Below are positions 51,119 to 62,229 of a DNA stretch of 64,000 nucleotides, piece by piece (within the stretch, counting starts at the first letter, position 1; every line of letters begins with the position of its first letter). The notes under the pieces were generated by a model. It was not told the DNA's origin and did not search any database. It saw nothing but the letters and a program-made list of their open reading frames with translations. Position numbers and translations under genes: made by a program. The DNA is taken from contig OZ250150.1 in assembly GCA_965237675.1 (NCBI GenBank), forward strand, positions 1,312,001 through 1,376,000, written 5' to 3'. This stretch comes from Candidatus Latescibacterota bacterium. Lineage in GTDB: Bacteria; Latescibacterota; UBA2968; GCA-2709665.

Positions 51119-53470
51119 ATGCTCCGAAATTACCTGATCGTGGCGTACCGCAATCTCATGCGGCACAAGGTCTACTCCGTGATCAACGTGGCAGGCCTCT
51201 CAATCGGGATCGCATTCTGCATTCTGACGTTCCTGTACGTCCGGCGCGAGTGGACGTACGACACGTTCCACGAGAACGCGAAACGGATCTACAGGGTCTA
51301 TGTCAATTCCCGTTTCGGGCCGTCAGCTGAAACGCCGGACCCGCTGGGGCCGGCGCTGGTGGAGACGTTTTCGGACGTCCGGACCGTGAGGATTGGCGGG
51401 GGCGCTTCCTTTGCGAAGTATCAGGAAAGGACCCTTCGCGGAAGTTTTCGCTTTGCCGATCCGGCGATTCTGGAGGTGTTCACGTTTCCACTGCTGCAAG
51501 GAGACCCCGCGACGGTTCTGGAGGATCCGTACTCTCTCGTCATCACAGAAGCGGCGGCGCGGAAATACTTCGGAGATGAAGACCCCCTCGGCAAGGTCCT
51601 TTCAGTGAAACTATGGGGGCCACCGGCGGTGGACCGGGATTTCGTCATAACCGGGGTTGCAAAGTCGGTGCCCAAGACCTCCAGCATCCGGTTCGATTTT
51701 GTGGCTCCGTTTTCGGCCAGAGGCGAACCCAGAGGTTGGAATATAAGAGCTATCCGGACGTTCGTATTACTTCCTCAACACGGACGTCCGTCGGAACTCA
51801 GCGCACGGTTTTCGAATTTGTTACCCAAATATCTGCCGGCATGGATGGGAGAACAGTCGGACACCTCTGTGGGCCTCCAGCCACTCCTGGAGATGCATCT
51901 CGGACGGGGAATACCGGGACTCAGGGGAGCAGGCAATCCGGCATTTTCTTATATTCTTCTGGGAATTGCTCTGCTCGTTCTGGTGAATGCCTGCGTGAAC
52001 TTCATAACCCTTGCCGTGGGCCGGTCATTCTCCCGCGACCGCGAAGTGGCGATGCGAAAGGCGGCCGGTGCGTCGCGGACACAGTTGATGGTACAGTTCA
52101 TGGGAGAGTCGATGCTCTTGAGCGTGGTAGCCATGGTGGCCGGGATCGGTTTGGCGGAACTCGTCCTGCCGGCCTTCAACAACCTGGTGGGCAAGGACCT
52201 CGCCCTGGGCGATCAGGCCGACGGCGCGGGTCTGGCGTTTCTGTTCGGACTGGTGGCGGCCGTCGGGATGGCCGCGGGCGGCTATCCGGCCTACGTGCTG
52301 TCGGGGTTTCAGCCGGTTGCGGTGTGGAATCGACAGCGCAGGATGGGAGCCTCCAGCCTGTTTGGACGGGCGCTCGTAGTTTTCCAATTCGCCCTTTCCG
52401 TCTTCCTGGTTGTCAGTACGTTGCTGATGGTCCGGCAACTGGAGTACCTGAGGACGAAACCGCTCGGCTTCGAGAGTGATTACGTCCTGCGCATCCGGGC
52501 GTGGGACCTGTTTGAACGAGATTCAGACCTGCTTGGGGTGTATCGCAACGAGGTGATGCGACACCATTCTATCCTGGGGACCACGACGACGAGTCACGCG
52601 CTGAGCAACAGGACGAGGTACCTTACCGACATCGAGTACAAAGGCGAAGGAATAGACGTCGAGCAAGTCAATGTCGGCTACGACTTTCTGGCGACGATGG
52701 GGGTCTATCTTCTGGAGGGCGCGGATTTTGATCCACAGAGTTCGGGTTCCCGGGCTTCAATTATCGTGAACGAGGCCCTTGTCCGGCATTTGGGATGGCA
52801 AAGTCCGGTCGCGGGCAGGATGCTGCGCATGAATAAACGGGATGTTACGGTGATTGGGGTGGTAAAGGATTTTCATTTTCGCTCTCTGCACCATACGATC
52901 CGGCCGGCGGTGTTGCAGTTCGACCCGAACGGATATGGCGCCGTGCTTGTCAGGGTCCGCCCGGAGAATATCCCCGGCACGCTGGCCTTCCTCGAGGAGA
53001 AGTGGCTTGAAGTCGCTCCCGACATTCCGTTTCAGTTATCATTTCTTGACGACGAAGTGGATGGGCAATACAGGAAGGAGGAGCGCTGGAACCAAATTGT
53101 CATGTATTCTGCGTTGCTCGCGGTCTTCATCGCCTGTCTCGGGGCGTTCGGGCTAACCGCTCTTGCCGTTTCGCGCCGGACCCGGGAGATCGGGATCCGG
53201 AAGGTCCTGGGAGCCCATGGAACCGAAATCGTCTCACTCTTATCCGGGGATTTCGTTAAGCTCGTGGTCATTGCGAGTCTGATTGCCTGGCCGGTGGCGT
53301 ACTATGCGTCGGACCGATGGCTGCAGGACTTCGTGTATCGGATAGAACCGGGCATCGGCACGTTTGTATTGGGCGGGATATTGATGCTGGTGGTTGTGTT
53401 GTTGACCGTGAGTGTCCAGGCCATCCGGGCGGCGTGGGCGAACCCGGCGGACGCGCTGCGGACCGAGTGA
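51119..53470 (+). CDS. ABC permease paralog 6
   Basis: MLRNYLIVAYRNL ... NPADALRTE; AGGAGG RBS. Confidence 0.93.
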   Translation: MLRNYLIVAYRNLMRHKVYSVINVAGLSIGIAFCILTFLYVRREWTYDTFHENAKRIYRVYVNSRFGPSAETPDPLGPALVETFSDVRTVRIGGGASFAKYQERTLRGSFRFADPAILEVFTFPLLQGDPATVLEDPYSLVITEAAARKYFGDEDPLGKVLSVKLWGPPAVDRDFVITGVAKSVPKTSSIRFDFVAPFSARGEPRGWNIRAIRTFVLLPQHGRPSELSARFSNLLPKYLPAWMGEQSDTSVGLQPLLEMHLGRGIPGLRGAGNPAFSYILLGIALLVLVNACVNFITLAVGRSFSRDREVAMRKAAGASRTQLMVQFMGESMLLSVVAMVAGIGLAELVLPAFNNLVGKDLALGDQADGAGLAFLFGLVAAVGMAAGGYPAYVLSGFQPVAVWNRQRRMGASSLFGRALVVFQFALSVFLVVSTLLMVRQLEYLRTKPLGFESDYVLRIRAWDLFERDSDLLGVYRNEVMRHHSILGTTTTSHALSNRTRYLTDIEYKGEGIDVEQVNVGYDFLATMGVYLLEGADFDPQSSGSRASIIVNEALVRHLGWQSPVAGRMLRMNKRDVTVIGVVKDFHFRSLHHTIRPAVLQFDPNGYGAVLVRVRPENIPGTLAFLEEKWLEVAPDIPFQLSFLDDEVDGQYRKEERWNQIVMYSALLAVFIACLGAFGLTALAVSRRTREIGIRKVLGAHGTEIVSLLSGDFVKLVVIASLIAWPVAYYASDRWLQDFVYRIEPGIGTFVLGGILMLVVVLLTVSVQAIRAAWANPADALRTE

Positions 53471-53773: not shown

Positions 53774-54394
53774 GTGATGAAAATGAAAAGCGAATACAAG
53801 ACGCTACAATGCGCGCCTGAGTCCGACGCGACGATGATCGAACGGGCGCTTGCGGGCGATGAGTGGGCCTATACGTACCTTTACAGGGCGCATCGCGACC
53901 GCGTGCGGGCGCTCGTGCACCGAAGTGCAAGGAACGCAGATGAGACCGAGGATCTGGTTCAACTGGTCTTTATAAAGGCTTTTCAGGGACTGGCTGGGTT
54001 TCGGGGACAGGCCGCGTTCTCCACGTGGCTGACGCGCATTGCCATGAATGTGCGTACATCCCATTCTCGGTCCTTGAGAAAGCGGAAGAACTGGCTGAGT
54101 GAGGTTGAGGATGCCGTACCCGCGCTCCAGGCGCGGTGGTACGCGTCGCCTCACGAGGATCCCGAAGCGGTGATGGTGCGGAAGGAGCGCAGGGAAATTG
54201 TGATGCGGAGCATCCGGGCGCTGCTGGAACGGCATCGGGAGGCGGTCTGGTTGCATTATGTGGGTGAACGGTCCTATCATGAGATCGTCGAAGAACTCCA
54301 GGTGCCCATCGGAACGTTGAAAGTCTGGCTATACCGAGGAAGGCATCAGTTGAGACGGGAGGTTGAGCGGCTGGGGATGGCGGTGAGTCTATAG
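53774..54394 (+). CDS. ECF RNA polymerase sigma factor
   Basis: EDLVQ.VFIKA, FSTWLTRIA.N (region 2); SYHEI...L.VPIGTLK..LYRGR (region 4). Confidence 0.9.
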   Translation: MMKMKSEYKTLQCAPESDATMIERALAGDEWAYTYLYRAHRDRVRALVHRSARNADETEDLVQLVFIKAFQGLAGFRGQAAFSTWLTRIAMNVRTSHSRSLRKRKNWLSEVEDAVPALQARWYASPHEDPEAVMVRKERREIVMRSIRALLERHREAVWLHYVGERSYHEIVEELQVPIGTLKVWLYRGRHQLRREVERLGMAVSL

Positions 54395-54460
54395 GAACTG
54401 GAAAGAATCGACCTGGAATGGTTGCACGCCAACGTCTCAGGGGTTGTAAAGGTAAGTCCT

Positions 54461-55909
54461 ATGGCAGAGCGAAAACCACAGAAGGACAAGGGACGGGTGT
54501 TGAAGCTGGATCAGGCAGGCGCGCCGGCCGATCGCCAGACTTCCAGTCGGGAATCGTCCGAGGGAACGTCAGACTCCGTTGGCGGAGATAGACCGATGCC
54601 CGGTTTCGTGGGTGCCGGTACCTCGGCGTCTGAAGGGGCACGCCAGAAAACGATCCCTGGCACGGACCGCAAACTCGAAAAGAAATTTTGGAAGCCGAAA
54701 CGCATCCTGAGCGTTGGCGCGGTCGCGGCATTTGTGGGACTGGTCCTCTATATGGCCATTTTTGGAGACCACAGCGCCAGGCTCAACGTGCAGGTCGAGC
54801 GAATTACGATTGCGGAAGTCACCCGCGGCCCCTTCCAGGAATTCATTCCCCAGCGCGGCACCGTGATGCCCATTCAGTCGCACTACCTGGATGCGCTGGA
54901 AGGCGGGCAGGTGGAGGAGATATTCCTTGAAGAGGGGGCAATGGTAGAAAAAGGCACGCGGATCTTGCGCATGTCGAACCCATCCCTGGAACAGACCGTA
55001 TTGAGCCAGGAAGCGCAGTTGTTCGAGCAGATCAACAGAATGGAAAACACCCGATTGAGCCAGGAGATACAGGATATCCAGCGCAAGCGTTCCCTGATGG
55101 ACATCGAACTGGACCTGCAGAAATCCGAGCGCGATTTTCGGAAACAGAAAGCGCTATTCGAAAACAAATTCGCCTCGAGAGACGAATTTGAAGAGGCAAG
55201 AGACAAATACGGACACGCGCAGAAGCTTAAGGTGTTCATGCTGGAGACCTTGCGGCGCGACTCCCTCTATCGAATCAATGAACTGGCTGCCCTGCAGAAG
55301 CGCGCATGGAGCCTGCAGCTCCAACTGGATGACGTGCGTCGCCCGCTGAGGAATCTGATCGTCCGCGCGCCGATCGACGGTCAACTTTCGCAACTCAACG
55401 CCGAGATCGGCAAGTTGATCGCGAAGGGGACCAGCATTGGCCAGATCGACGTTCTGGACGCTTACAAGATGCGTGCGGCTATCGATGAATTCTACATTAC
55501 CAGAATCACGACTGGGCTGAAAGGGACGATTGAAATTGACGATGAGACGTATGAGTTGAAGATCCGTCGGGTTTTCCCCGAGGTAAAGGAGGGCCAGTTC
55601 GAGGTCGATATGGATTTCACAGGCGAGGCGCCTCAGAGCATTCGTCGCGGCCAGACGGAGCAGATTCGGCTGGAGTTGGACGCGCCCGAAGAAGCGTTAT
55701 TGCTGCCGCGGGGCGCGTTCTATCAGACCACGGGCGGCAACTGGGTCTTCGTGGTCGAGGGCGACCTGGCCGTGCGGCGCCAGGTTCGCATCGGACGCCA
55801 GAATCCCGAGTACTTTGAAGTGCTCGAGGGCCTGTCCCCAGGGGAACGGGTGGTGACCTCGTCGTACGAAAATTATGAAGAAATCGATAAATTGGTCTTA
55901 CAGCGGTAA
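54461..55909 (+). CDS. Periplasmic adaptor (membrane fusion protein, MacA/HlyD-like)
   Basis: Single TM, GGQVEEI..EEG, long coiled coil, RAPIDGQL, EVLEGL.PGERV. Confidence 0.92.
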   Translation: MAERKPQKDKGRVLKLDQAGAPADRQTSSRESSEGTSDSVGGDRPMPGFVGAGTSASEGARQKTIPGTDRKLEKKFWKPKRILSVGAVAAFVGLVLYMAIFGDHSARLNVQVERITIAEVTRGPFQEFIPQRGTVMPIQSHYLDALEGGQVEEIFLEEGAMVEKGTRILRMSNPSLEQTVLSQEAQLFEQINRMENTRLSQEIQDIQRKRSLMDIELDLQKSERDFRKQKALFENKFASRDEFEEARDKYGHAQKLKVFMLETLRRDSLYRINELAALQKRAWSLQLQLDDVRRPLRNLIVRAPIDGQLSQLNAEIGKLIAKGTSIGQIDVLDAYKMRAAIDEFYITRITTGLKGTIEIDDETYELKIRRVFPEVKEGQFEVDMDFTGEAPQSIRRGQTEQIRLELDAPEEALLLPRGAFYQTTGGNWVFVVEGDLAVRRQVRIGRQNPEYFEVLEGLSPGERVVTSSYENYEEIDKLVLQR

Positions 55910-55992
55910 GAGGTGAGAAGGAAGACGTAAGAGGATGGAAGTCTCGCCACTTTGTTCGGCGCTAAAGTCAAATGGGATAGAGCCAAAACACG

Positions 55993-56352
55993 ATGTTGAA
56001 TCTCAGCCACAAAAAGCTTGAAGCATGGAAAATGAGTATTGATCTGGTGAACGAGATTTATACTTTGACCTCTGAATTTCCTTCCACCGAAATCTATGGC
56101 ATTACCAGCCAGTTACGTCGGTCTGCTGTCTCAATACCGTCTAACATCGCCGAGGGATCAGCGAGATCTTCGAATACTGAACGCAGAAGATTTCTCGAAA
56201 TAGCCAGGAGTTCGCTGGTTGAGTTGGATACTCAACTTGAAATTGCACTAAACCTCCAATTGTGTTCGGACGATGACGTTCAATCAATATCAGAAACGAT
56301 GAATCGTTTGTTTGGTTTACTCTCAGGATTGATTAGTAGAGTTTCCTCGTAA
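55993..56352 (+). CDS. Four-helix-bundle protein (23S rRNA IVP / Avd-like family)
   Basis: L.AW..S, FP..E.YG.TSQLRRSAVSIPSNIAEG, FL.IARSSL.EL.TQL; AT-richer than neighbouring genes. Confidence 0.93.
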   Translation: MLNLSHKKLEAWKMSIDLVNEIYTLTSEFPSTEIYGITSQLRRSAVSIPSNIAEGSARSSNTERRRFLEIARSSLVELDTQLEIALNLQLCSDDDVQSISETMNRLFGLLSGLISRVSS

Positions 56353-56400
56353 CCCGTGCCGATTCGTTAGCCATTTTTGTTACGGCCAATAAAACGAACG

Positions 56401-57120
56401 GGCACTCATATCCTCTCCCGTCTAACGTCTTCCGTCTAACTTCGGTAAGAGGTGAGCCGGGAGACGGCAGTGGAAAAACCTTGCCACCGGATGCGGCGCC
56501 AGAGCGAGAAGGGATAGCGCCAAGACACGATGCTGATTTTCAGCCAAATTGCGTTACTGCCAGGACTGACAAATAGGGTTTCGTCGTAATCCGTGCTGAA
56601 AACTCAGCCAATGTCTTTTGCGACTTTTGAGACGATAATGCACTCATATCCTCTCCCGTCTCCCGTCTAACGTCTACCCTTTCATCAGGCACTCATATCC
56701 TCTCCCGTCTCCCGTCTAACGTCTACCCTTTCATCAGGCACTCATATCCTCTCCCGTCTCCCGTCTAACGTCTACCCTTTCATCAGGCACTCATATCCTC
56801 TCCCGTCCAACGTCTTCCGTCTAACTTCGGTAAGAGGTGAGCCGGGAGACGGCAGTGGAAAAACCTTGCCACCGGATGCGGCGCCAGAGCGAGAAGGGAT
56901 AGCGCCAAGACACGATGCTGATTTTCAGCCAAATTGCGTTACTGTCAGGACTGACAAATAGGGTTTCGTCGTAATCCGTGCCGAAAACTCAGCCAATGTC
57001 TTTTGCGACTTTTGAGACGATAAGGTACTCACATCATCTCCCGTCTCCCGTCTAACGTCTACCCTTTCATAAGGCACTCACATCATCTCCCGTCTCCCGT
57101 CTAACGTCTTCCGTCTACCC
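56401..57120. repeat. Two 385-bp-period deleted copies of the four-helix cassette plus three perfect 49-bp tandem repeats
   Basis: Units start at 56443 and 56828; 49-mers at 56640, 56689 and 56738 with no spacers. Confidence 0.9.
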
Positions 57121-57140
57121 TTTTTAAAAGGAGCTCCAAG

Positions 57141-57830
57141 ATGATCAAAACGGTTAATCTACAGAAAGTCTACCGAACGGAAGAAGTCGAAACGACCGCG
57201 CTTCGGAATGTCAATCTGGAGATTAGCGAAGGCGAGTTCGTGGCGGTGATGGGCCCCTCGGGTTGCGGCAAGTCCACGCTTCTGAACGTGCTGGGGCTGT
57301 TGGATAACCCGACGGATGGGGAATACTATCTGAACGACGTGGAGGTGTCGAAACACACGGAGCGGCAGAGAGCGGACACCCGGAAAGAGAATATCGGATT
57401 CGTGTTTCAGAGTTTCAATCTGATCGACGAACTGACCGTGGCCGAGAATATCGAACTGCCGCTGCTGTACCTGAAGATGCCGTCCAAAGAACGCAGGAAG
57501 CGCGTGGATGAGTCGATGGAGTATATGGGCATCAAGCACAGGGAGAAACACTTCCCGCAGCAGTTGTCGGGCGGCCAGCAGCAGCGGGTGGCCGTGGCGC
57601 GGGCGGTCATTTCGAATCCGAAAATGATCCTTGCGGATGAGCCCACGGGGAATCTGGACTCCGCCAACGGCAATGAAGTGATGGGATTGTTGACGGAATT
57701 GAACAAGAACGGGACGACCATCGTGATGGTGACGCACAAAGCCCACGATGCGGGATATGCCCATCGCGTCGTTCACCTGTTCGACGGCCACGTGGTGACC
57801 GAGAATATCAAGGAGCAAGCGCCGAATTAA
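57141..57830 (+). CDS. ABC transporter ATP-binding protein (MacB/LolD type)
   Basis: GPSGCGKST, FQSFNL, LSGGQQQR, ILADEPTGNLD, VTH; AAGGAG RBS. Confidence 0.96.
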   Translation: MIKTVNLQKVYRTEEVETTALRNVNLEISEGEFVAVMGPSGCGKSTLLNVLGLLDNPTDGEYYLNDVEVSKHTERQRADTRKENIGFVFQSFNLIDELTVAENIELPLLYLKMPSKERRKRVDESMEYMGIKHREKHFPQQLSGGQQQRVAVARAVISNPKMILADEPTGNLDSANGNEVMGLLTELNKNGTTIVMVTHKAHDAGYAHRVVHLFDGHVVTENIKEQAPN

Positions 57831-57971
57831 CCGCAGCGCGACGATAGAACGGGGGTCGAAACCGGGTACCTGACCCGAGTCCGGGGGGTTTACTCGTTAC
57901 TCCCCATTTTTCTGTCGCCGCTCATCTCGCCCGTGCCCGCCCGTATTCCTCCGACAGCGACGTTCCCGTCC

Positions 57972-58934
57972 CTACAACGTTCCCTGGTGCCCGGCGCGGA
58001 TGGCCTCGCACAGGCGCATGGTCTGTACGGCGTCGTCCAGGGTTGACCATGGCTCGCGGTCTTCCAGAATGCAGTCGACGAAGTGGACGATCTCGTTGTA
58101 GCCGGACCCGCCCACGGCCTCGATCTCATCGCCCTCCAGTGAAAAAGCCTCGCCCTGATCATAGCCCTCTACTTGCGGCGCCCTTGTCAGATCGAGATAA
58201 ACCGAAAGGTCTTCGCCGTGTACCTCAGCCCACTGGATGCGATAACCCACGCCATAGTGGCTCATCAAAACGCCGAAGGCGCCCGTATCGAAGCGCACCA
58301 CGGCGTTGTGGCGGTGGCATCCGGGGCGCTCGCCATCCTGCACTATCCCCCGCACCTCCACCGGTACGGCCGCTTCCTCGGGGCTGGGACCCGCCAACCA
58401 GCGGATCAGGTCCACGTGGTGAATGGCGTCGCAGATCACCGGATCCGGCGTTGCGGCCTTAAACCGGGTTACCCGTTTGTTGTACGTGGCCGCGACGTGT
58501 ACCGCGCCCCCGCCCGCCTGGATACGCCGCCGGACGGCCAGCACGTGAGGATAGTATCTCCGGTTGAACGATACGATGGCCTTGCCCGTGCTGCGCCGGG
58601 CGGCGTGCGCCATCTGCTCGGTCTCATCGGTGTTCATCCCGGGCGACTTCTCCACCGACGTGTGAATACCGCGTTCCAGGCAATCCAGCACGATGGGCAG
58701 CAGATGACCGGGGTCCGTGACGACGTACACGAGATCCGGCCGGCACGCGTCGAGCATCTGCCGGTAGTCCGTAGAGGCCAGGTCCGGCGCCCATTCCGCC
58801 CTGTTTTTTCGGAGACGCTCCCCGTCGAGTTCCGCGATGCCCGCCAGCTGAAGGCGTGGCTCGTCGGCAATCATCTTGAAATGCGACTGGGCGTGCCCGC
58901 CACAGCCGATAACCGCGGCTTTCAGATCAGTCAT
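57972..58934 (-). CDS. Gfo/Idh/MocA oxidoreductase
   Basis: AVIGCGGHA, VEKSP, FNRRY, DAIHHVD. Confidence 0.88.
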   Translation of the reverse strand: MTDLKAAVIGCGGHAQSHFKMIADEPRLQLAGIAELDGERLRKNRAEWAPDLASTDYRQMLDACRPDLVYVVTDPGHLLPIVLDCLERGIHTSVEKSPGMNTDETEQMAHAARRSTGKAIVSFNRRYYPHVLAVRRRIQAGGGAVHVAATYNKRVTRFKAATPDPVICDAIHHVDLIRWLAGPSPEEAAVPVEVRGIVQDGERPGCHRHNAVVRFDTGAFGVLMSHYGVGYRIQWAEVHGEDLSVYLDLTRAPQVEGYDQGEAFSLEGDEIEAVGGSGYNEIVHFVDCILEDREPWSTLDDAVQTMRLCEAIRAGHQGTL

Positions 58935-59053
58935 GGTGAATTCCTTTCAAGGAGGGTAGACGGAAGAAGGAAATAGATAAGAAAGAAAAACGCGAAGATG
59001 TATAACCTACCCCACCCCCTAACGTCCCCTATTCCCTTGCCCTTTTTCGAAGG

Positions 59054-59486
59054 GCCGGGAGACGGAAGAGGTAAGACGGTAGAGGAAAAACCTTGCCACC
59101 TGATGCGGCGCCAAGCCAAAAAGGATAGCGCCGGAACGCCATATTGAAACATGTGCGCCATGGTCTTGAGATTGACACAACAGCGTTTCCACGTGACCCG
59201 TGCCTATTCAGTAGCCATAGTTGAGTCCACTCCGAAAAGTGAGATTCGCGTGATTTTCTTCCAATTTGGATCAGGAACGGCCATTTTCAATAAAAGCTAT
59301 ATCCCCATAAATCATTATATATAATAGTGTTATATCAAGTATGATTTCGATTTACTTCTGAGTGAAACACCAACTTGGACCTCGTCAGAGAGGATTTTGA
59401 CTTTTCGGAGGAGACTCATAGTTGTTACGGCAAATTAAACGACCAGGCACTCATATCGTCTCACTTCTTCCGTCTAACGTCTCACT
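59054..59486 (+). mobile_element. Third, diverged deleted four-helix cassette carrying a nested MITE
   Basis: Shares GGAAAAACCTTGCCACC.GATGCGGCGCCA, GGATAGCGCC, CCCGTGCC and GGCACTCATATC blocks with the 55904-57120 units. Confidence 0.75.
59223..59417. mobile_element. MITE, 195 bp
   Basis: IR GAGTCCACTCCGAAAAGT / ACTTTTCGGAGGAGACTC (16/18) with 6-bp duplication ATAGTT. Confidence 0.85.
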
Positions 59487-60474
59487 GCCTTTAGAAGAAG
59501 GGCGCCGCTCGGCGCGGGGCCGGTTTTTCCGTGAATTTCCTCAGTAGTGGAATTGGAAATCGGGTGGCCTATGAGCCCTCCAGGAGCTGCCGGTGTACGG
59601 AGATTTACGGAATAACACGGAAAAACCCCCCGCTCCACCTCCGTCCGGTCATTAGTTATTCCTTGAAGTTCTGGCGAGCGGAATGGCGCTTGTACCGCTC
59701 TTTGCTGTATGCCGATAGTTATCTGCCAAATGCTGACCGCTGATCGCTCCTCACCCCCAGGAAACCACACCGTTCTCTAACACGATGCCTCTTGAGAGGA
59801 CTACCAGAGCAGGGCGCGTTTTTCCGTCCCGCTCCAAATTACGATTTCCTCCGTGGTTGGCAGGGCAGCGGATTGGGTGGGTCCCGTGAAGTAATTCGCG
59901 CCATGCATAAAACAGGCCCCGCGCCCAGCGGCGACTATTGCAAAGGCGGTAAGAGGTAAGAGGCGAGACGGTAGAGGGCTAAAAACTCTGTAATATTTCG
60001 CCCTCAAATCCGGTCTGTCACTAACGGGCTAATGGAAATGGATCACGAATGAGGGCACCAAACCGGTGACGGTGTCTTCTCCCCTCTCCCGTCTTACGTC
60101 TCACGGTCTTAGGGAACCCGCCGTAGGCAGGGAATTTGTGGAAAGGTGGATTTTGATTTTGACTTTCCCCTATTGCCTTTGGCTGACCCCTGACCGCTAC
60201 GTAGGGTAACATCTGTTCGGGCACATAGATAACACTTTTCGTGGCGACCCCTGCAGGCTGCCACGTGACCGTTGAGGTGAGAAGTGTCGATAACCGGAAC
60301 GGTCGCGCTCGGGGTCGATGCGGTGCGCCGCAGCAACGTTCGACCGGGGGTAAAGCGAGTGCGAACGCGAGGTGCGTCCCTTTTTCTGTTGACAACTGTG
60401 GAGTTCCAACAGTACCATGACACCTGCAGTTTGCGTTGTTTTCTGGCGATTGTACAACATAGAGGAGGTAAGAA

Positions 60475-62229
60475 ATGGACCGGGAGGAGATGAGCCACGA
60501 GGAGAACTACTGTTTCGATATCTCGGGCTACCTGATCTTACGGGGTGTTTTGACGCCCAAAGAGGTCGAGGCCTGCAATCGGGCGCTCGAGCGCGAGGGC
60601 CGCGTGAGTGGGATGCTGGGATGGCCCGCACCGCATAGGGAGCCGTTCCGGGACCTGATGGCCCATCCCGTGCTGGTTGGGTACCTGAACCAGCTCATCG
60701 GATATGGTTTCCGGCTGGACCGGGAACCGGAGCTGATCGGCAAAGCGGATGGGGCTGCCGGCGGCCTCGTTGGCGGCAATGAACCGATGGACGCCGGCCG
60801 GGCCTACTACATCCTCAACGGCCGCCGGCACTGACAGGGAATACACGCCATCTGGGCGCTGTCCGATACGAGCGCGGGAGATGGCGGGTTTTCGCTGGTC
60901 CCGTGCAGCCACAAAAGCAATGTGGGAACCCCCGAAGATGTGCTGACCGGGAGGGACGACCTGGGACTGACCGTGCAGCCGGTGCTGAAGGCGGGCGACC
61001 TGCTGCTGTGCACGGCGACCCTGCTTCAGGGCGTACGTCCCGGAACGAGGGAGCACCCGCAGCGGCTGCTCTTGTACAAATACGCGGGGCACGCGGCGGT
61101 GCAATCCATCGGCACCGGGCCGAAGACCCGACGGGAGGACCAGCCGGAATGGATGGCGGAATTGACGCCGGAGCAGCGTGTTATGCTGCACAAGCCGGGA
61201 TACGGGGATTCGGACCCGCCTCCCACGCTCAGCTCGGATGGAGAGACCTGTTGGGTGGACCCGGAACCCGACCTGTCCCACCCTTCCATCTATATCAAGA
61301 ATCCGGATTCGAACATCGACGAGAAGGAGTTCTATTTCTGGGACCTGTGCGGTAATCTCGTCCTCCGAAATGTGATGACTCCGGAAGACCTGGCGCTGGC
61401 GAACGAGGCGGTCGACCGGTTTACGGACCGCATCGTGGTTGAAAGCGTAGATCTGGCCAAGGGGTCCAAGAGCCTGGCCGGAACCGGGCGGCCCACCATG
61501 ACCGGCCTGCTTGAAATGCCCAGGCCCTACTGTGAACCGTTCCGGAAGATGCTCGCCCACCCGGCAGTGGTACACCGCCTCACCTGGATGGGCGGGAAGG
61601 GCTTCCGGTGTACGGGCTTTGAGGCGATCTGTACGGCCAGCGGAGGCGCCGGACATTTTCTTCATGGCGGCAACGAGCCGTTGAGTCCATCTCGCAACTA
61701 TACCTTCCAGAACGGCCGCAGCTATGCGCTGGGGGGCCCGTCCGTTGCGGTGGCCTGGCAATTGCGGGATGTCACCGAAAACGACGGGGGGTTTGCCTGC
61801 GTGCCGGGAAGCCACAAGGCGCAGTACCGCATCCCCAAGGGCGTTTGGACCTGCGACGAGGACATGGGGCTGGTGGTACATCCGCTGACAAAGGCCGGGG
61901 ACGTCATCTTTTTTATGGACGGCCCGCAGGCGCACGGTGCACTGGCGTGGAAGAGCGACATCCAGCGCCGCGTAATCCTGACGCGGTACTCCTCGCGGCA
62001 CTTCAACGGGGGAGCGGCAATGGCGACCCCGGAGGAGAGATGGGGGGGTCTTCTGGAGGGGATGGGTGGGGCGCAGCTGGCGGTGATGCGGGGGCCGGAC
62101 CGCGACGAGAAGGCCAGCAACGTGCCGCGGCTGGTTTCGGAGAACGGAAAAATCGAGGTCGTTTACGACCGGAGTCAGGGTGGGCTTTACACCGGGGCGA
62201 CCCCTAAGGGGGCGCCGTCCAGGCGTTGA
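60475..62229 (+). CDS. Tandem-domain PhyH-like Fe(II)/2OG dioxygenase with in-frame TGA at 60832-60834
   Basis: ORFs 60475-60834 and 60922-62229 share a frame; the two internal domains align across the stop (GGNEP, W.L, DGGF..VP.SHK, AGD). Confidence 0.75.

Follow-up and report, generated by a model that had tools for sequence, protein, structure and literature searches.

What is a small gene of the 23S rRNA intervening-sequence protein family doing in the spacer of an operon, framed by inverted arrays of heptamers and followed by units of the same kind that have lost most of the gene? The locus that raises this question lies within an efflux-pump operon in the genome of a Candidatus Latescibacterota bacterium, between a gene for a HlyD-type periplasmic adaptor (54422-55909, plus strand; HlyD_3, E = 4.2e-14) and a gene for an ABC-transporter ATPase (57141-57830, plus strand; ABC_tran, E = 2e-36). 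The stretch of DNA that was analysed, called the window here, comprises 64,000 nucleotides (C1:1312001-1376000) of a 5.6-Mb genome, and coordinates refer to the window unless they are preceded by C1. This genome is coded G000, neighbouring and comparison genomes are coded G001 to G026, and those of the same genus as G000 are called congeners. We consider it likely that the nest comprises three copies of a selfish cassette of the intervening-sequence type, lodged in the spacer of an operon, and that a non-autonomous short lineage is represented among them. The element is best filed with the intervening sequences, as a form that lies outside rRNA, has a conserved leader and trailer, includes a discrete non-autonomous short lineage and shows cassette replacement at a fixed spacer.

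The full form of the cassette is unit 1, which was found between the adaptor and ATPase genes just as a preliminary description of the sequence had laid it out. It begins with a left arm of four to five tandem heptamers of the type G[GT]NAGA[CG] (55906-55940, plus strand), the TAA stop codon of the adaptor gene falling within the first heptamer. There follow, all on the plus strand, a leader of about 60 nt with the conserved boxes GCCAC, GGCGC and GGATAG (55932-55992; nhmmer E = 1.2e-17), an intact four-helix-bundle gene of 119 codons (55993-56352; 23S rRNA IVP/TIGR02436) and a trailer of about 60 nt (CCGTGCC ... GGCACTCATATC; 56341-56414; nhmmer E = 1.7e-19) containing a short stem-loop, the stem of which is invariant in an alignment of short units. 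A right arm of inverted heptamers (56413-56440, minus strand) closes the unit, and the two arms constitute a 23-nt inverted repeat that is 83% complementary.

Units 2 and 3 are short forms on the plus strand. Unit 2 (56445-56685; 185 nt from leader to trailer) is made up of a left arm (56445-56472), a leader (56468-56538), a residual open reading frame (ORF) of 19 codons (56530-56589), a trailer (56578-56652) and a first right arm (56651-56685). Unit 3 (56830-57119; 184 nt from leader to trailer) is 97% identical to unit 2 and has its left arm at 56830-56857, its leader at 56853-56923, its trailer at 56963-57036 and right arms at 57036-57063 and 57085-57119. Unit 1 measures 483 nt from leader to trailer, and units 2 and 3 are shorter by about 298 nt, or about 99 codons, which confirms the loss of about 100 codons reported earlier. 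A direct repeat of 300 nt, with copies at 56401-56700 and 56786-57085 that are 97% identical and spaced by 385, holds the two. A 49-bp tandem repeat on the plus strand (56640-56807; 3.4 copies, 100% matches) is the end of the unit 2 trailer multiplied together with the right arm, giving arms at 56651-56685, 56700-56734, 56749-56783 and 56798-56825. Units 2 and 3 are a recent local tandem duplication and not two insertions, and the 385-bp duplication and the 49-bp repeat show that copy number at the locus rose by unequal exchange or slippage between arms.

The product of the ORF at 55993-56352 matches PF05635 (23S_rRNA_IVP; E = 3.9e-36), TIGR02436 (E = 2.6e-34) and PDB 2gsc (E = 2.8e-30). PF05635 is the sole Pfam match of the four-helix gene, which in turn is the single PF05635 match in the G000 genome, and the 119-amino acid protein has no known catalytic motif. 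To our knowledge, PF05635 proteins have had no function assigned to them since the description of rRNA intervening sequences. Comparison of eight genes of the subfamily gave a ratio of nonsynonymous to synonymous substitution rates (dN/dS) of 0.10-0.33 in all 27 pairs with dS above 0, as expected under purifying selection (in one further pair, G014 versus G011, dS was 0). The protein is therefore maintained, unlike the ORF of the Coxiella 23S rRNA intervening sequence, which is decaying (PMC4990558).

Arrays and PF05635 genes were found side by side well beyond this locus. Among relatives, PF05635 matches number 0-5 per genome at varying loci, with 19 of 31 genomes matched at E ≤ 0.001. All 29 of the PF05635 genes inspected there are flanked by tandem arrays of a short repeat, the unit of which differs by protein subfamily, as judged by eye (GAGAC type, GCTGANN, CAGTGGT-like, purine-rich, GGGGCTS, GTCCGGR, AATTCTT and GGAAGAA). 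The adaptor-ATPase spacer itself holds, in five congeners (G010, G007, G006, G009 and G004, the contig of G004 ending inside the spacer), a 41-44% identical PF05635 gene with GCTGANN heptamer arms, and in G009 a stub of a GAGAC-type arm persists beside the adaptor stop codon. Across phyla, flanking inverted repeats scored above the 99th percentile of mismatched-pair controls at 36 of 79 PF05635 loci (a set of 80 from many phyla, minus one with a short flank) and above the 95th percentile at 45. Among the 19 top-scoring loci, both arms had a period of 7 in 14 cases and one arm in two, both arms had a period of 8 in another two, and the remaining locus had a different period. Both neighbouring long open frames were on the strand of the gene at 61 of 76 loci, by crude ORF calls with no control. 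In the AATTCTT-type subfamily (G002, G014, G004 and G013), the arrays run in the same direction on both sides of the gene, which is preceded and followed by copies of its own 3' end; a full copy beside partial tandem copies therefore recurs in a second subfamily.

In the G000 genome, exact runs of at least four heptamers number 69, compared with none in a second-order Markov simulation, which served as the control since the motif is symmetric under reversal and reversed sequence was thus unusable. Relaxed arrays number 200, compared with 35 and 46 in two simulations. The exact arrays have three, four, five and seven units in 18, 64, 4 and 1 cases, respectively, and 54 convergent arm pairs occur within 2 kb. 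One way to read these numbers is that heptamer arrays are autonomous, slippage-prone simple repeats and that PF05635 genes merely share spacers with them. We regard this as improbable. It would accommodate the facts that most of the approximately 200 arrays are far from the single gene, that arrays persist in G005, a genome with no PF05635 match, and that the arms of one element do not co-vary, and it agrees with PMC4692102 and PMC4679880, both of which treat heptamers as simple sequence repeats with no mention of the PF05635 family. It fails, however, to account for the switch of arm type with gene subfamily at an identical spacer, for the occurrence of the arrays as convergent pairs of about four units and not as open-ended tracts, and for matching inverted flanks at 36 of 79 unrelated loci, where about one would be expected. 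Nor would it predict that GCTGANN arrays number 43-89 in the five genomes with a GCTGANN-armed gene and 6-41 in the other ten, counts that are uncorrected for phylogeny and are suggestive of an array number that may track gene presence.

Profile searches of the genome gave five leader and seven trailer matches at three loci (the next leader match had E = 1.1), namely the nest itself (55906-57119), 59057-59485 and C1:5531731-5532073, the last 4.16 Mb away. Copies of leader and trailer elsewhere in the genome, which the preliminary description had proposed to look for, are thus present at two places. The unit at 59057-59485 (plus strand; arms at 59057-59091 and 59458-59485, leader at 59080-59148) is another short form, and its trailer is split by a miniature inverted-repeat transposable element (MITE) at 59223-59417; after removal of this MITE and one 6-bp target duplication, the unit (59080-59458) measures 178 nt from leader to trailer. 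The MITE is a classical, AT-rich one of 195 bp and 36% GC. Its terminal inverted repeats measure 18 bp and its target duplications 6 bp (ATAGTT in this case), and it has five genomic copies with 97-100% identity.

Leader-to-trailer lengths, taken over the window and all fetched loci after removal of overlapping duplicates, fall into two size classes with none between them: without redundancy, seven full units measure 473-483 nt and 12 short ones 173-185 nt, the MITE-interrupted unit being a thirteenth short one. When 11 short units from six genomes, including the distant G000 copy, were aligned, they had one common junction; in total, this junction is common to seven genomes (G000, G002, G003, G005, G008, G012 and G014, that of G002 being read in the spacer). 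Short-form matches in congeners lie on many different contigs and at many different positions. The single common deletion junction shows that the short form arose once, by loss of approximately codons 11-110, and then persisted and spread as such.

Could the nest be no more than local duplication and decay of a resident gene, with nothing ever mobile? Units 2 and 3, as a 385-bp tandem duplication with 97% identity, and the 49-bp repeat, as a local amplification, are what such a history would leave, and G012 offers a case of decay in place, its orthologous cassette being reduced to one short unit that retains the first ten codons of the gene at its start. Yet the short units, only 73-78% identical to the resident full unit, have their junction in common with six other genomes and with the copy 4.16 Mb away. 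Moreover, the site is empty in other genera and filled with an unrelated cassette in five congeners, and the intact cassette is found at three loci. We therefore rate purely local decay as somewhat less probable even than simple repeats. The preliminary description had seen in the complete and deleted copies a mobile family, and had named the lack of other copies and a cassette fixed at this site as signs of local duplication. Dispersed copies exist, and the cassette is not fixed at the site; the mobile family is upheld by the two other loci, the junction in seven genomes, a polymorphic site and three locations, while the two deleted units that follow the full one are to be read as a local duplication.

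The spacer from the adaptor stop codon to the ATPase start codon was measured in 21 genomes, and the figures for the genus come from the 14 with both ends on one contig, in which it is at least 226 bp. In other genera it is 18 bp (G015), 34 bp (G026 and G024) or 81 bp (G016). The three genomes with 18-34 bp represent empty sites, so the empty sites anticipated in relatives do occur, and within the genus the site is variable. Comparison with the empty sites shows that the ATPase gene has retained its T-run and its ribosome-binding site (TTTTTAAAAGGAG) directly past the last arm. The 34-bp empty spacers of G026 and G024 start with TAAGCTGATTGC or TAAGCTAATCGC, resembling one GCTGANN unit, which could be a footprint, a seed or a coincidence. 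Within the genus, three other genomes (G008, G003 and G014) hold the gene of G000 in the spacer, with 89-93% amino acid identity. The spacer of G012 contains the single short unit still beginning with the first ten codons, those of G002 and G005 contain short units and those of G013 and G001 other repeats, and that of G011 extends over 3.9 kb without the gene.

Comparison of the eight subfamily genes placed the intact cassette at three locations among congeners. The first is the adaptor-ATPase spacer (G000, G008, G003 and G014), the second lies upstream of a conserved gene whose product begins MKIILTETL (G006, G011 and G014) and the third was found in G013. G014 carries copies at both the first and the second location, and in G000 the second location has other repeats and no gene. 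The copy of G006 at the second location differs from the G008 copy by a dS of 0.317, and the copy of G014 at the first location differs from the same G008 copy by a dS of 0.347. Taken together, the comparative data show gain, loss, swap and relocation of the cassette. The genes of G014 and G011, two species-level genomes, are nearly identical at the second location (dS 0.000, dN 0.004), whereas the downstream gene has three differences in its first 81 nt; recent transfer could be the cause, as could gene conversion.

A CAGTGGT-like-armed PF05635 cassette was observed within the reading frame of a DNA-methyltransferase-like gene in G010 (C1:1101421-1103562), G023 and G021, where the insert takes the place of about 10-16 codons between ...FGEPDI and GVDVFHPNTGE.... 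The host frame of G010 and G023 remains open across an insert of about 152 residues, the PF05635 gene being in another frame, and in G021 the host frame is broken. An uninterrupted orthologue is present in G000 (C1:4244241-4245899), and the seven orthologues that were read are without the insert.

These comparisons bear on the idea that the insert is a domesticated regulatory module that uncouples adaptor and ATPase expression by processing or attenuation, the protein serving the host as an RNA chaperone. Such a role would be in keeping with the purifying selection on the gene, with a cassette whose start coincides exactly with a stop codon and which spares the ribosome-binding site downstream, and with the retention of the same gene at the site in four congeners. 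It is hard to reconcile with a different cassette in five congeners, with short forms or other repeats only in five and a gene-free 3.9-kb spacer in G011, with spacers of 18-34 bp in other genera, and with the same cassette in unrelated contexts, including the inside of a methyltransferase reading frame. Scans of 55700-57300 gave one promoter-like site, on the minus strand (1.3 in shuffles), and three terminator-like sites (1.4 in shuffles), nothing beyond chance in either case. Domestication thus ranks slightly below local decay in our estimate and is very improbable.

Sequences with the same heptamer arms and no gene are also present. A family of about 164 bp, with a member at 59949-60104 (plus strand; 75% identity to the reference copy), has 39 BLAST matches, 20 of which span at least 153 nt, and a second gene-less family with the same arms is about 118 bp long. 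A larger conserved repeat occurs in 23 copies, 15 with the 164-bp module, seven without it and one of another kind. Since this repeat is found both with and without the module, the 164-bp sequence is a discrete insert. At C1:1546750-1549000 and in many other spacers we observed intergenic repeat islands made up of several short modules, each with 20-70 genomic copies, of which the heptamer-armed module of about 164 bp is one component. Small ORF pairs that by eye resemble toxin-antitoxin modules lie between or beside heptamer arrays at C1:1463425-1464185 and C1:1486992-1488967. A reading as integron cassettes, which such pairs suggested, was set aside, the arms being tandem 7-mers; no integrase search was made.

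The least probable explanation of all is that the units form a classical MITE family which depends for its movement on a transposase from another place in the genome and carries the four-helix gene as a passenger. In its favour, the arms are terminal inverted repeats, gene-less copies outnumber the gene-bearing one and the genome does have an active MITE (the five-copy family described above). Against it, three empty/filled comparisons of heptamer-armed units revealed no target duplication, in contrast to the MITE at 59223-59417, no obvious transposase-length ORF was seen in 13 longer arm-bounded intervals (from an ORF listing, with no family search), and the PF05635 gene is the one constant cargo across phyla. 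The term MITE-like, applied to the short units at first, accordingly fits only loosely.

Several results weigh against reading the nest as a selfish cassette with a protein that acts on its arms. Copy number is low, with 0-6 short-form DNA matches per congener. G005 has 130 GAGAC-type arrays and G012 has 15, both without a PF05635 match, and the array counts of genomes with the subfamily (32-367) overlap those of genomes without it (15-173) and show no trend, in a search whose pattern also catches GGAAGAA arrays of another subfamily. Over 52 arm pairs of G000, mean complementarity was 0.749 for cognate and 0.742 for non-cognate arms, and 389 of 2000 permutations reached the observed value. Co-variation between the arms of an element is thus absent, and the consensus that all arms have in common accounts by itself for their pairing of about 75-83%, a weak pairing for a substrate of long double-stranded RNA. 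Minimum-free-energy folds pair the arms, which speaks for the cassette, and their z-scores are modest (-2.05 and -2.27), which speaks against it. For 11 short units the consensus fold is weak (-12.55 kcal/mol, with compensatory change in 4 of 26 pairs), and we claim no conserved RNA fold of the leader. The 164-bp copies are mostly inside the larger conserved repeat and may owe much of their number to hitch-hiking. No target-site duplication was revealed by the three empty/filled comparisons, at the adaptor-ATPase, larger-repeat and methyltransferase sites. The co-occurring reverse transcriptase that the preliminary description had envisaged was not found beside any cassette: the four RVT_1 matches in the genome, at C1 positions 0.52, 2.69, 3.96 and 4.79 Mb, are all more than 700 kb from the cassettes (1.37 and 5.53 Mb), and the two that were checked are of the group II intron type, with a GIIM domain.

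The RNA-library data (four runs) are assembled contigs, in which transcript ends are not visible and uncovered parts are uninformative. One contig with a depth of 7, representing a G012-like allele with a single short unit, runs uninterrupted from the end of the adaptor gene through the short unit into the ATPase gene. This also weighs against the cassette as we read it: excision, if any, is not complete, and the contig may be DNA carry-over. A 544-nt contig from a size-fractionated metatranscriptome contains the short-form trailer (matching 56341-56417) at a depth of 548, compared with 2-50 for neighbouring contigs, and may be an abundant RNA carrying the short-form unit. Neither contig proves transcription or processing.

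On balance, we still favour the selfish cassette and propose the following way for it to work. The full unit consists of four to five heptamers followed by a 60-nt leader, the PF05635 gene, a trailer hairpin of 60 nt and the heptamers in inverted orientation. It would be expressed by read-through from the host operon; it shares its strand with the neighbouring operon genes, and no promoter-like site was found on its own strand. The arms would join the ends of the insert to each other, either in RNA or in single-stranded DNA, and in this way the insert would be tolerated. An oligomeric four-helix-bundle protein would recognise its own heptamers and be needed for spread or retention. The short forms would then travel as riders, as would the gene-less families that have these arms. 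Movement would take place without a classical transposase and would more likely proceed by templated replacement or by recombination at hairpins; an RNA intermediate, though possible, is at present unsupported.

A bolder and quite tentative suggestion, which we think more likely to be wrong than right by a good measure, is that the four-helix protein is the trans-acting factor of a class of transposase-free elements and that each subunit of a protein ring reads one single-stranded 7-nt unit. We know of no mechanism for bacterial heptamer repeats. If the suggestion were true, the reading of one heptamer by each subunit would explain why an arm has about four to five units, why the period is 7 across phyla, why the arm sequence changes with the protein subfamily and why the arms pair imperfectly, and the complex of protein and arms would be what drives hairpin-templated copying, with short spacers, rRNA loops and even reading frames as its targets. 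It would also account for the long-noted excess of bacterial heptamer repeats. The lack of co-variation between arms points to unit-by-unit recognition over a plain double-stranded RNA stem, and is a constraint missing from earlier descriptions. The locus offers a natural experiment in one genus, with empty sites, a full cassette, a short lineage, replacement, decay in place and a sister cassette inside an open reading frame, and its defined cognate and non-cognate pairs make protein-heptamer binding and trans-mobilisation directly testable.

Upstream of the adaptor gene, the window contains genes for a MacB/FtsX-type permease (51119-53470, plus strand) and a sigma factor of the extracytoplasmic function type (53774-54394, plus strand). 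The single 23S rRNA gene of the genome (C1:3467365-3470396) has no period-7 window. An Rfam E-value scan of 55000-61000 returned no matches.

How does the cassette compare with known systems? Cyanobacterial short tandemly repeated repetitive sequences and small dispersed repeats are comparable bacterial repeats. GGGAATC heptamers form 70-75 convergent pairs in Xanthomonas (PMC4692102, which also covers Nostoc), and TAACTGA heptamers are found in Beggiatoaceae and cyanobacteria (PMC4679880). Like the heptamers of all these groups, those described here are intergenic tandem 7-mers, often in convergent pairs and patchy across phyla. Unlike the repeats as published in the two papers, in which the terms 23S, S23, four-helix and intervening do not appear, the arrays described here are tied to a gene family. 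With classical MITEs, the short units have in common that they are small, non-coding and inverted at their ends and are internally deleted relatives of a longer unit; they differ in lacking a target-site duplication and in having a full-length parent that encodes PF05635 and, as far as an ORF listing with no family search can tell, no transposase. In REPIN/RAYT systems, inverted copies of a repeat enclose a single-copy gene, the repeat is also scattered gene-less around the genome, and RAYT is a Y1 HUH transposase. The arrangement here is alike in having a single gene between inverted copies of a repeat that is dispersed gene-less, but the gene encodes a 119-amino acid four-helix bundle with PF05635 as its only Pfam match, and the arms are tandem heptamers and not REP hairpins. 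In enterobacterial and Campylobacter 23S rRNA, short intervening sequences that have no ORF are hairpin inserts found alongside relatives with an ORF. They are the analogue of the 173-185-nt short form, which, unlike them, lies outside rRNA and keeps the start and end of the lost gene together with a conserved leader and trailer.

The PF05635 family is homologous to Avd of diversity-generating retroelements, from a comparison of PDB 2gsc with 4dwl, and Avd works with nucleic acid and a reverse transcriptase, as stated in PMC10053308; unlike in such retroelements, no reverse transcriptase adjoins the cassettes here. PF05635 genes have also been reported within cas operons, for example between cmr3 and cmr2, in a passage of PMC3936711 that does not mention arms. 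We found no account of heptamer-armed PF05635 cassettes outside rRNA in the full-text literature, a body that leaves subscription journals and supplementary files uncovered.

The closest known relatives are the ORF-bearing intervening sequences of 23S rRNA in Coxiella burnetii and Leptospira. As set out in PMC4990558, that of Coxiella has an S23p ORF, tandem heptamers (GACAGAT, varying in number between strains) and a 28-bp terminal stem, and is excised by RNase III; the same paper quotes an old idea that the ORF serves the mobility of the element. The cassette resembles these elements in its PF05635-family ORF, its adjoining tandem heptamers, its stem-closing terminal repeats and its lack of a transposase, and the rRNA elements have long been suspected of being selfish or mobile, with ORF decay and deletions between strains (PMC4990558). 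It departs from them in that its host is the spacer of an mRNA operon and not helix 25 or 45 of 23S rRNA, that its gene is under purifying selection and not decaying, and that its arms are 75-83% complementary, do not co-vary and form an imperfect stem. In the searched literature, the same architecture is known only for the Coxiella rRNA intervening sequence.

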